A DNA stretch of 64,000 nt from contig DASRDF010000014.1 of NCBI GenBank assembly GCA_035652735.1, forward strand, positions 8,477-72,476, written 5' to 3'. The stretch is from Pseudolabrys sp. Lineage in GTDB: Bacteria; Pseudomonadota; Alphaproteobacteria; Rhizobiales; Xanthobacteraceae. Positions 36,001-39,000 of the stretch are shown here, piece after piece. The position numbers were made by a program. The first letter of the stretch is position 1; every line of letters starts with the position of its first letter.

Positions 36001-39000
36001 CCTTCACAAGGCCCTTCTTCACGCAGCGTTTCAAATACGCGTTGACGAGCCCGAGGGCTATGCCGAGTTCGGAGGCGAGATGACGCTGCGAGTGGGCGCG
36101 ATCCTGCTCGACCGCATCGAGCAGCCCCAGCATGATACGTGACGCTTCGGCGTTCTCGTCCGCCAGACGACGCATACGCTTCCCCCGAACAGAACCTCGA
36201 TACGCCGTTCACAGCGTGAACGTCAAGCGTCATGTTCAGATTATGAACGCGATCGATTTGCAGGCTTAACGCGGATTCTGCTGAGAAATCAGAATACTAA
36301 CAGTCCGGCGCAATGGCGAACCGTTTTGTCTCGTCCCTGCCTGGCAAAATCGGAGCCGTATGCTCTAGTGCGCCGATGCCGCCCAGGCTTGTCTATCTCG
36401 TCACCGAAGACTGGTATTTCGTCTCGCACCGGCTGCCGATGGCGCGTGCCGCCGCCCGTGCCGGCTTCGAGGTGCACGTGGCCACGCGCGTGGCGAAGCA
36501 CCGCGCCGCGATCGAGCGCGAGGGATTCGTTCTGCATCCGCTGACATGGCAGCGCGGCAGCCTCGATCCGCTTCACCTGACCGCCATCGTGAGAGACGTG
36601 CGAAAGCTGTATCGCTCGTTGCGTCCGGCGCTGGCCCACCACGTCGCGCTTGCGCCGACGATCGTTGGTTCGCTCGCCGCGCTTGGCATGGAATTTCCTC
36701 AGCTCAATGCGCTCGCCGGGCTAGGTTTTGCCTACACATCGAGCGGGCCCAAGGCGCGCGTCGTCCGCCCGGTGTTCTCAATGTTGCTGCGGGGTCTTCT
36801 GCGGCGGCCGACGGCAACTGTGCTCGTCCAAAATCCTGATGATCGCAAGGCGCTGCAGACGATCGGAGTCCCAGGAAATAAAATCGTGCTTGTTCCGGGA
36901 TCGGGGGTTGATACGGAGAATTTGCAGCCGCTTCCCGAGCGGCCGGGTCCGATCACCATCGGTTTCGTCGGACGGCTGCTGCACGACAAAGGCGTGGCAG
37001 CCCTGGTCGCCGCGCATCAGTTACTACGAGAGCGCGGCAATCCGCTTCAGCTTCTGATCGCCGGAGAGGCCGATCCTGCCAACCCGGCAAGCATTTCGGC
37101 ATCGACGCTGACCGAATGGAAGCGGCTCGAAGGCATCGAATTCCTGGGCCACGCCGACGTTCGCGACGTTTGGCGCCGAGCGCATATCGCGGTCCTCCCC
37201 TCTCGCCGGGAAGGACTGCCACTCAGTCTGTTGGAGGCGGCAGCCTGCGCACGCCCCTTGGTCGCGACCGATGTGCCAGGATGTCGCGAGATCGCCCGCG
37301 CCAATGAGAGCGCGCTGCTTGTCGCGCCGGACGATCCGCCGGCGCTCGCCGATGCACTCGCGCAGCTTGCCGCCGATGCGGATTTGCGCCGCCGTTTGGG
37401 CGCAGGTGCCCGTCATCTGGTCGAGACGGAATTTTCCGCCGCGCGGATCGGCGACGAAATCACCGCGCTCTATCTCCGGCTCATCCAGAGCGGCGCACCG
37501 AACGCCGCTCAGTCGTCCGTGAACTTGCCCTTGTAGTCGAGCTTCAAGGCCTGATCCTGCTCGTGCTTATAGAGGATGCAGTTGCCGGCGACGAGCACGT
37601 CGATCTCCGTACCCATGAAGCACCGGAATGCGTCTTCGGGCGTGCACACGATCGGCTCGCCGCGCACGTTAAACGAGGTGTTGACCAGCACCGGGCAGCC
37701 GGTGATCGCCTTAAAACGCGAAATAAGATCGTGGAATCGTGGATTGGTTTCGCGGTGGACGGTCTGAATGCGCGCCGAATAGTCGACATGCGTGACGGCG
37801 GGTATGTCGGAGCGCGGCACGTTGAGCTTGTCGATTCCAAACAACTGGGCTTCCGCCGCGGTCATCGCCCGCTGACGCGCCGCTTTGACGGGTGCCACCA
37901 TGAGCATGTACGGAGAGTCGACGTCGAGTTCGAACCAATCTGCGACATCCTCGCGCAACACCGCGGGCGCGAAGGGCCGGAAGCTCTCGCGGTACTTCAC
38001 TTTCAAATTGAGCGTTTTCTGCATGCCGGGTGAGCGCGGATCGGCTAAGATCGAACGGCCGCCGAGCGCCCGCGGCCCGAATTCCATCCGCCCCTGAAAC
38101 CACCCGACGGCCCTGCTGTCCGCGAGCGCGCGAGCGGTATCTTCGATCAGAACAGCGTCGTCTCTAACGCTGAAGCGCGCACCGGCAGCCGCTAATCTTC
38201 GTTCAATCTCGCCCTGCGGGAACGATGGGCCCAAGTATGACCCTTGCATCAGGTCGGTGCCCGCGCAGGCGACACGCGGCTGCCCGGCATGCAGATGACA
38301 CGCCGCAAGCGCAGCGCCGATCGCGCCGCCCGCATCGCCGGCAGCCGGCTGAACCCATATTTGATTGAAGTGCCCGTCACGGAGCACCTTGCCGTTTGCG
38401 ACACAGTTGAGAGCCACACCGCCGGCGAGGCATAGGTTCTTCATTCCGGTTTCCGCCTTCAGCGCTTTGGCCGTGCGGCGCACCACTTCCTCGGTCACGG
38501 CCTGAATGGACGCGGCAAGATCCATGTGCCGCTGTTCAAGCAATTCTTCGGGCTTGCGTGGCGGAGCGCCAAACAGCGCACCAAAGCGCCGGTTGGTCAT
38601 CGTCAGACCTGTGCAGTAGTCGAAATAGTCGAGCGCTAAGCGATACGAGCCGTCCTCTTTCAAGTCGATGAGATTGTCGAGAATCGTCTGAACGTATTTG
38701 GGCTCGCCATACGGCGCGAGGCCCATCACCTTGTATTCGCCGGAATTGACCTTGAACCCCGTGTAGTAGGTGAATGCTGAATAGAGCAGTCCCAGCGAAT
38801 GGGGAAAATGAATTTCCTTCGTTAGCTGCAGTGACTGGCCTTGGCCGACACCGGCGGACGTCGTCGCCCATTCGCCGACGCCATCCATCGTCAGCACGGC
38901 CGCATCTGTGAATGGCGAGGGATAGAACGCCGATGCAGCGTGACTGAAATGATGTTCGGCAAAAAGAAGCTTGGATGGGTCGGCGAGAGCCTCGTCAATC

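Follow-up and report, generated by a model that had tools for sequence, protein, structure and literature searches.

Twin GTTCA-N5-TGAAC palindromes embedded in a conserved promoter, most likely the autorepressor site of a MarR_EPS-related regulator heading a polysaccharide operon in Pseudolabrys

Two palindromes with the same arms stand side by side in front of a regulator gene in a genome of Pseudolabrys sp., and they raise the question of which protein reads them, what they do to transcription, and how many genes depend on them. The locus lies in contig DASRDF010000014.1, of which we analyzed a stretch of 64,000 nt, hereafter the window. The pattern GTTCA-N5-TGAAC has two exact matches in the window, at 36207-36221 and 36234-36248, whose starts are 27 bp apart and which lie 31-73 bp 5' of the ATG (36175) of a minus-strand open reading frame (ORF; 35534-36175). 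This gene encodes a 213-aa regulator with an N-terminal winged helix related to MarR_EPS and a C-terminal Rossmann-like domain. Judging by sequence, the boxes are almost certainly the binding sites of this regulator's family, and we consider it probable that they act as operators of the adjacent winged-helix protein, within a sigma-70-type promoter, and would switch the whole operon by repression.

In the window sequence, the predicted proximal operator box (36207-36221) reads GTTCACAGCGTGAAC and the predicted distal box (36234-36248) reads GTTCAGATTATGAAC; in gene orientation, these become GTTCACGCTGTGAAC, lying between the predicted -35 and -10 elements, and GTTCATAATCTGAAC, centered about 27 bp 5' of the proximal box. 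The initial annotation of this stretch had already given the positions of the pair, the spacing, and the distance to the regulator start, all of which agree with our reading of the sequence, and its claim that the window holds no other copy stands even when one mismatch is allowed. The first box is a longer palindrome than was given there, namely CGTTCAC-AGC-GTGAACG with 7-bp arms. Taken singly, a box with at most one mismatch is not significant within the window (1.15 are expected, and at least two occur in 31 of 100 shuffles). The tandem arrangement is significant, as a pair with at most three mismatches in total appears in none of 30 shuffles of the window.

The strongest evidence comes from related genomes. 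A genome scan with the regulator protein gave 80 loci whose proteins are 57-86% identical to that of the window, mostly from Pseudolabrys and other Xanthobacteraceae, together with Afipia, Bradyrhizobium, and Rhodopseudomonas. Each locus was taken with 4 kb on either side, for a total of 684 kb of DNA including the window, and upstream sequence was included in 79 of the 80. Conservation upstream of orthologs, on which the initial annotation had staked its proposal, is present at all 79: two exact boxes occur in 73, while the other six have one exact box and a second that is changed, absent, or carries a one-base insertion. In total, 154 exact boxes are found (152 in the 80 loci and two in the window) against 0.4 expected, all of them at the regulator promoter, while boxes with one mismatch remain at chance level (nine against 10.6 expected). 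The start-to-start spacing is equally constrained; in the 74 sequences compared, including the window, it is 27 bp in 44, 28 bp in 24, 26 bp in five, and 29 bp in one. With a preference for Y and R at positions 5 and 9 of the proximal box and again in its outer flanks, the palindrome effectively amounts to YGTTCAY-N3-RTGAACR. The sequence conservation, the fixed geometry, and the exclusive association with the regulator family are thus shown by direct comparison. The reading of the boxes as accidental, or as a repeat without function, draws on the insignificance of a single box in the window alone and is vanishingly improbable; it is refuted by this conservation at one promoter position, by the shuffles in which no tandem pair arose, and by a protein-blind scan that recovers the regulator family.

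That scan searched metagenome contigs for GTTCA-N5-TGAAC-N10-14-GTTCA-N5-TGAAC, with no protein information, and returned 120 stretches. In 95 of them, 12-233 bp separate the boxes from the facing 5' end of a regulator homolog (27-77% identical). Three further stretches hold a homolog cut by the contig edge (L138), a frameshifted homolog (L159), and a second copy of the promoter (L088); about five lie at contig ends, and about 17 are unrelated or simple repeats, a number near chance expectation. Taken together, about 97 of the 120 stand immediately before a regulator homolog, true short MarR_EPS proteins among them. Twelve of the adjoining proteins are short (99-124 aa), and the five that were profile-scanned are all members of TIGR04176 (MarR_EPS), with 110-150 bits where 88 is required; on the same profile, long forms other than the window's reach 65.7-67.3 bits. 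Protein similarity alone led to a further short member (P0193, from locus L201 of a low-GC marine metagenome-assembled genome), which has the same box layout, with TTTACa-GTTCAATATTTGAAC-gg-TATATT-GTACAATTATTGAAC just before its ATG. Counting genomes and metagenome contigs together, the boxes recur before members of the family in about 180 cases other than the window. Residues of the recognition helix and the wing are common to long and short forms (SQR..L...L...LG..N.YLK, then Y.LTP.G), in agreement with the unchanged half-site.

The scan also bears on the possibility that the boxes are read by some protein other than the adjacent regulator, for example a global regulator with its gene elsewhere, in which case the arrangement would be one of co-regulation rather than autoregulation. 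The half-site GTTC/GAAC does occur in alphaproteobacterial LexA boxes and in -35 elements of the extracytoplasmic function (ECF) type. However, the tandem boxes track the winged-helix gene in genomes from 25 to 69% GC, whether the form is long or short and whether or not a recognizable RfaH gene is present, and we know of no global regulator common to genomes spanning that range, which makes a foreign binder very unlikely. Two specific candidates were rejected. In the LexA box of Alphaproteobacteria, GTTC-N7-GTTC, the repeat is direct, while the repeats here are inverted; the EcfG-type promoter is GGAAC-N16-17-CGTT, while the corresponding distance here is 11 nt; and in both cases, the boxes follow the winged-helix gene outside Alphaproteobacteria.

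One stretch from the scan, L088, carries the boxes at 12118-12159 and again at about 14117-14160. The copy 5' of the regulator has one mismatch, and the exact second copy, with its TTGAC, precedes a Gfo/Idh/MocA-type sugar gene 1.3 kb past the regulator/rfaH pair; this sequence arrangement is the only hint of a second direct target. A separate case is locus L109, in which the module of boxes plus TTGAC is duplicated (106-147 and 1620-1661), the first copy preceding a 73-aa fragment that matches regulator residues 6-51 and looks like a partial duplication or pseudogene.

What kind of protein, then, is the regulator? The initial annotation had assigned it to MarR_EPS, and this label holds for the true short members that share the boxes, but not strictly for the protein of the window, which is a long-form relative of the family. 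On TIGR04176, it scores 61.5 bits (E = 6.5e-17) over residues 15-94, below the curated cut-off of 88. It passes Pfam HTH_24 (32.7 bits against a threshold of 21.9) and stays below PF12802 (23.0 against 27 at full length, 24.5 against 27 for the N-terminal half) and PF01047 (14.5 against 24.6 for the N-terminal half). MarR_EPS members are single-domain proteins of about 105 aa, and the regulator is twice this length because of the added C-terminal Rossmann-like domain. It shares with the family a surface-polysaccharide cluster context, and with MarR proteins, at the sequence level, a palindrome overlapping its own promoter. Both the blind scan and the protein-led look-up found that it also has its predicted operator in common with bona fide MarR_EPS members, a mark of relatedness that we propose here and that is not part of the curated definition. 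The family is very large, with over 7,500 homologs of the long form and over 8,000 of the short form scored.

In the AlphaFold2 model, residues ~100-209 form a Rossmann-like alpha/beta domain with a block-mean pLDDT (predicted local distance difference test) of 78-96. No Pfam family was found for these residues, and no significantly related solved structure was found by single-protein or profile sequence search. Foldseek returned matches for the C-terminal domain at the level of fold only (E of at least 4e-3), among them CoA-binding proteins, the NAD domain of UDP-glucose dehydrogenase, the alpha subunit of succinyl-CoA synthetase, and the cytosolic domain of WbaP.

Where the boxes sit relative to the promoter becomes clear from the aligned upstream regions. 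Since a simple promoter and terminator scan of 35900-36600 found nothing, the promoter has to be read from conservation. We anchored the alignment on TTGAC plus the proximal box, an anchor found exactly once in 79 of 81 sequences (78 loci and the window). The half-sites of the proximal box are invariant in all 79 and always abut TTGAC, which is preceded by C in 74. In the window, the predicted -35 element, CTTGAC (36222-36227, minus strand), abuts the proximal box, and the predicted -10 element, TATCGA (36197-36202, minus strand), begins with a TA at 36202-36201, 18 nt after TTGACG. This TA is found at a fixed distance, +19/+20 from the proximal-box anchor, in 76 of the 79 sequences. A G-rich block at +35 to +40 is likewise conserved, and in the window it contains the probable ribosome-binding site GGGGGAA (36181-36187, minus strand), 5 nt before the ATG. 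In AT-rich relatives, the -35 element is a canonical TTGAC or TTTAC, and the -10 position reads TATATT, TATCTT, or TATAAA. Alphaproteobacterial housekeeping promoters reportedly carry CTTGAC at -35 and (C/G)TA at -10, and the predicted layout in the window matches this description. The initial annotation had proposed a palindromic operator overlapping the regulator's own promoter; the position within the promoter is borne out by conservation, while binding by the regulator is predicted from sequence.

Three arrangements recur in the family. In type A, that of the window (70 metagenome loci), a box is followed by cTTGAC abutting the second box and then by the TA. In type B, seen in nine long forms of 32-60% identity, the first box directly follows TTGAC, and next come a canonical -10 (TATATT or TATCTT) and the second box, which lies over the predicted transcription start. 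The short-form type (16 loci) has TTTACt abutting the first box, then TATAAA, the second box, and the ATG. One box always lies inside the promoter spacer, which is 17-18 nt throughout the regulator family, and the second lies either 5' of the -35 element or over the predicted start. As a separate observation, the words ATTGTA (TACAAT on the other strand) and TATTT recur within an AT-rich block that many of the related loci (L001-L035) have about 30-70 bp 5' of the distal box and that is not clear in the equivalent region of the window (36250-36300); the block might serve as a divergent -10 or as a site of bending.

Binding, the sign of regulation, the transcription start, and the ligand are what we infer from this architecture. 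Regulator dimers would bind the two palindromes, the proximal one filling the spacer between the abutting CTTGAC and the -10 TA, and the distal one lying a further box-length 5'. With the proximal box occupied, RNA polymerase should be blocked, which would make the regulator a repressor of its own promoter. This promoter would not serve the regulator alone: an RfaH-like antiterminator gene, coupled to it in translation, would come next, then an ops-like element for recruitment, and then polysaccharide genes in the same direction over about 20 kb. With the promoter at the head of the whole operon, the boxes would turn the entire cluster on or off. The likely sensor of a ligand would be the Rossmann-like domain at the C terminus, releasing or tightening the binding.

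The sign of regulation needs to be weighed most carefully. In distant relatives, both boxes lie over the core promoter, a placement typical of repressors, which indicates repression. By homology, type A is most likely repressed as well, but its weak -10 and the placement of its distal site could also accommodate activation or a dual role. Several points do count against the repressor model. The -10 element is weak in the window clade, reading TAnnAn with the final T missing; a protein that sits within an 18-nt spacer might also activate by reshaping the promoter; and the distal box of this clade is centered at about -51 relative to the predicted transcription start, where activators also bind. 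No second target is apparent, as we found no extra exact or tandem site in the window or within 4 kb on either side in the 80 genomes. The N-terminal half of the AlphaFold2 model, which holds the winged helix, is poor (pLDDT 40-59). Finally, the public runs that hold the window are of metagenomic DNA only, and RNA contigs for a relative, Afipia birgiae (L050), gave no usable 5' end; for another relative, Bradyrhizobium sp. HKCCYLS20291 (L068), no RNA runs were found. With respect to the former, the L050 locus is present in many public runs (X23-X46) labeled as RNA from other organisms, which is consistent with Afipia as a common contaminant of sequencing libraries.

An activator or dual regulator, with a ligand switching its state, might thus bind the same boxes and work either by MerR-like reshaping of an over-long spacer or by recruiting RNA polymerase from the distal box. 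The conserved TA without the final T, the spacer of 18 rather than 17 nt, and the distal box 5' of the -35 in type A would all suit this idea. It is hard to square, however, with the second box of relatives, which lies over the predicted start after a good -10, and MerR-type promoter spacers are 19-20 nt, against 17-18 nt throughout this family. We therefore regard activation as unlikely. Going by sequence comparison, the twin boxes are real, strongly conserved, and embedded in the predicted promoter, and they are most likely an autorepressor site.

One of the closest known parallels is the E. coli marO operator. MarR is reportedly a winged-helix dimer that binds two palindromes in its own promoter, one of them between -35 and -10, as the product of the first gene of the operon, and a ligand is said to relieve repression. 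The window resembles this arrangement in having two palindromes in the regulator's own promoter, one in the spacer, and the regulator as first gene, with binding here predicted from sequence. It differs in several ways: the protein falls short of both Pfam MarR thresholds, the motif is different, a single short winged helix plus a Rossmann-like domain replaces the MarR helical dimer core, and the second marO site lies over the ribosome-binding site, while the second site of the window lies 5' of the -35 (over the predicted transcription start in relatives). With TIGR04176 members, the window shares the homologous winged helix, the polysaccharide locus, and the same predicted tandem operator, except that the second box of the window clade is 5' of the -35 and not over the predicted start as in short MarR_EPS. 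Another comparison is the redox repressor Rex, which is said to combine an N-terminal winged helix with a C-terminal Rossmann small-molecule sensor and to bind palindromic operators. The domain logic is the same, but by analogy only. Rex was absent from the PDB sequence matches and from the top 50 Foldseek matches, where the N-terminal half of the model used is of low confidence; in the window regulator, VGQSDLA takes the place of the glycine-rich GxGxxG loop, and the half-sites of its operator (TTGTGAA-N4-TTCACAA) have the opposite orientation to the boxes. In the literature on the motif, on MarR_EPS, and on RfaH in Rhizobiales, we found no description of the operator and no experimental work on the family.

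How many genes would the operator control? The initial annotation had missed that the promoter, as read from the sequence, heads an operon comprising the regulator, an RfaH-like gene, an ops-like element, and about 20 kb of polysaccharide genes. The RfaH-like NusG paralog gene (35031-35537, minus strand) lies 3' of the regulator, with which it is adjacent in 78 of the 80 loci, and the TGA of the regulator overlaps its ATG as ATGA (35534-35537), which suggests translational coupling of the two. Its product passes the Pfam NusG N-terminal domain (74.7 bits) and scores below the cut-offs for RfaH (TIGR01955, 125.6 against 144.5) and UpxY (NF033644, 74.4 against 100). It is followed by PseB-like and PseC-like genes and then by a run of minus-strand ORFs down to ~14971; cluster genes include an ABC-transporter ATPase, GT4 transferases, a carbamoyltransferase, an epimerase, and an asparagine-synthase-like (AsnB-like) gene. 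The two-gene arrangement is not restricted to Xanthobacteraceae. In L201, the low-GC marine locus, the order over 6001-10900 is the short MarR_EPS, a 166-aa NusG/UpxY-like gene, and radical-SAM, NeuB, NeuC-like, and CMP-sugar synthetase (NeuA-type) genes, so that by gene content the same cassette appears to head a nonulosonic-acid polysaccharide cluster.

Between the RfaH-like gene and the PseB-like gene, a perfect 7-bp stem (CCGGGTG/CACCCGG) is followed by the ops-like element TGCGGTAGCGTG (together 34970-35003, minus strand). The element (34970-34991) lies 40-60 bp past the rfaH-like stop and about 10 nt before the PseB-like ATG, and its 12-nt core TGCGGTAGCGTG (34970-34981, minus strand) matches E. 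coli ops, GGCGGTAGCGTG, at 11 of 12 positions; recruitment at this site is predicted. The consensus TCACCCGGActGCGGTAGCgTGg occurs on the same strand, 50-80 bp past the rfaH-like stop, in about 70 of the 80 loci. At least six of the seven stem pairs can form in 74% of loci, compared with 23% of shuffled flanks, which gives the stem moderate support; RNAalifold on a gapless alignment did not recover the stem 5' of ops because the loop length varies. Five other GCGGTAGC matches occur in the window, all without the extended consensus; the one at 11367-11377 (plus strand), a second GCGGTAGCGTG core, is without the upstream TCACCCGG consensus, lies inside overlapping ORFs, and is probably a chance match. 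Compared with Rfam at E <= 1, the ops region gave no family and no JUMPstart-type model, and two sub-threshold Rfam matches inside coding sequence were taken as chance.

Some short-form loci differ in layout. In L166 (637-700) and L096 (4035-4100), an ops-like core, GCGGTAGC or GGTAGC, comes directly after the boxes, in the MarR_EPS leader, and in loci of this type, the RfaH-like gene lies upstream. A natural swap is found in L043, where the order over 3236-4600 is boxes plus TTGAC, rfaH-like gene, ops-like element (3900), and regulator; this order implies that the boxes track the operon promoter and ops tracks rfaH.

The combination of a specialized NusG paralog and a 12-nt ops-like element heading a long polysaccharide operon recalls enterobacterial RfaH with ops/JUMPStart (PMC7593976), although the ops-like element of the window comes after the rfaH-like gene and not in the 5' leader. 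An antiterminator encoded inside its target operon beside a second regulatory gene is also found in Bacteroides fragilis UpxY (PMC7593976, its reference 32), where the partner, UpxZ, is an inhibitor; in the window, the partner is instead a candidate DNA-binding repressor with its own operator. A cluster of RfaH proteins, CL4, has been described as "associated with an HTH regulator", with neither the operator nor the ops-like element described there (PMC7593976).

A final question is whether the operator also faces the other way. A GT4 glycosyltransferase gene (36313-37536, plus strand; Pfam Glyco_trans_1_4 and Glycos_transf_1) is divergent from the regulator, and the initial annotation had proposed control of both units, with a third inverted repeat, ATTCTG-N9-CAGAAT (36275-36295), between the boxes and this gene. 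The repeat is present as described but is probably not a functional part of the operator: about 10% of shuffles of the 64-bp stretch give a perfect inverted repeat with 6-bp arms, and both arms are kept in none of 73 orthologous regions. Dual control fares no better as a conserved property. Roughly one quarter of the loci have an adjacent divergent GT4 gene; in others it lies about 1.1 kb off, the remainder have none within 4 kb, and in several the upstream gene is co-directional; because the gene 5' of the boxes varies, divergent control is not a conserved function, and in L043, the boxes follow the operon promoter. The GT4 gene is thus a neighbor rather than a conserved partner. In the window itself, an additional effect on the GT4 promoter would be favored by distance, since the gene start (36313, or 36373 with a later ATG) is 65-125 bp from the distal box, as well as by the loci that keep the gene adjacent. 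Yet in most loci it is about 1.1 kb away or absent, the scan of 35900-36600 detected no promoter-like site for GT4, and the sequence between the boxes and GT4, including the near-chance third repeat, is not conserved, which leaves this extension of autorepression doubtful.

What does a twin operator at the head of this operon mean for the family? As an element, an autoregulatory palindromic operator is ordinary; the motif-regulator pair is new and lies within an interesting regulatory cassette. With it, a very large family of regulators gains a precise, testable layout of operator and promoter, and the motif can be used for annotating polysaccharide-cluster promoters in metagenome-assembled genomes and in designing electrophoretic mobility shift assays, DNA affinity purification sequencing, and reporter experiments, together with a ligand search for the Rossmann-like domain. 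We tentatively put forward a broader idea, which we hold as possible rather than favored: that surface-polysaccharide operons, in hosts ranging from low-GC marine bacteria to Xanthobacteraceae of soil, repeatedly begin with a two-gene cassette of a MarR_EPS-type winged-helix autorepressor and a cis-encoded NusG/RfaH paralog, that the half-site of this cassette, GTTCA-N5-TGAAC, has stayed unchanged down to ~27-40% protein identity, and that the Rossmann-like domain of the long forms would sense a nucleotide-type metabolite, such as a nucleotide sugar, CoA, or NAD(H). If so, precursor supply would gate the synthesis of the antiterminator, the protein that would commit RNA polymerase to the whole 20-kb operon. 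The comparisons made here also link the regulator family to cis-encoded RfaH-like antiterminators and ops-like elements, a linkage that suggests how many environmental bacteria switch their capsule or O-antigen operons.

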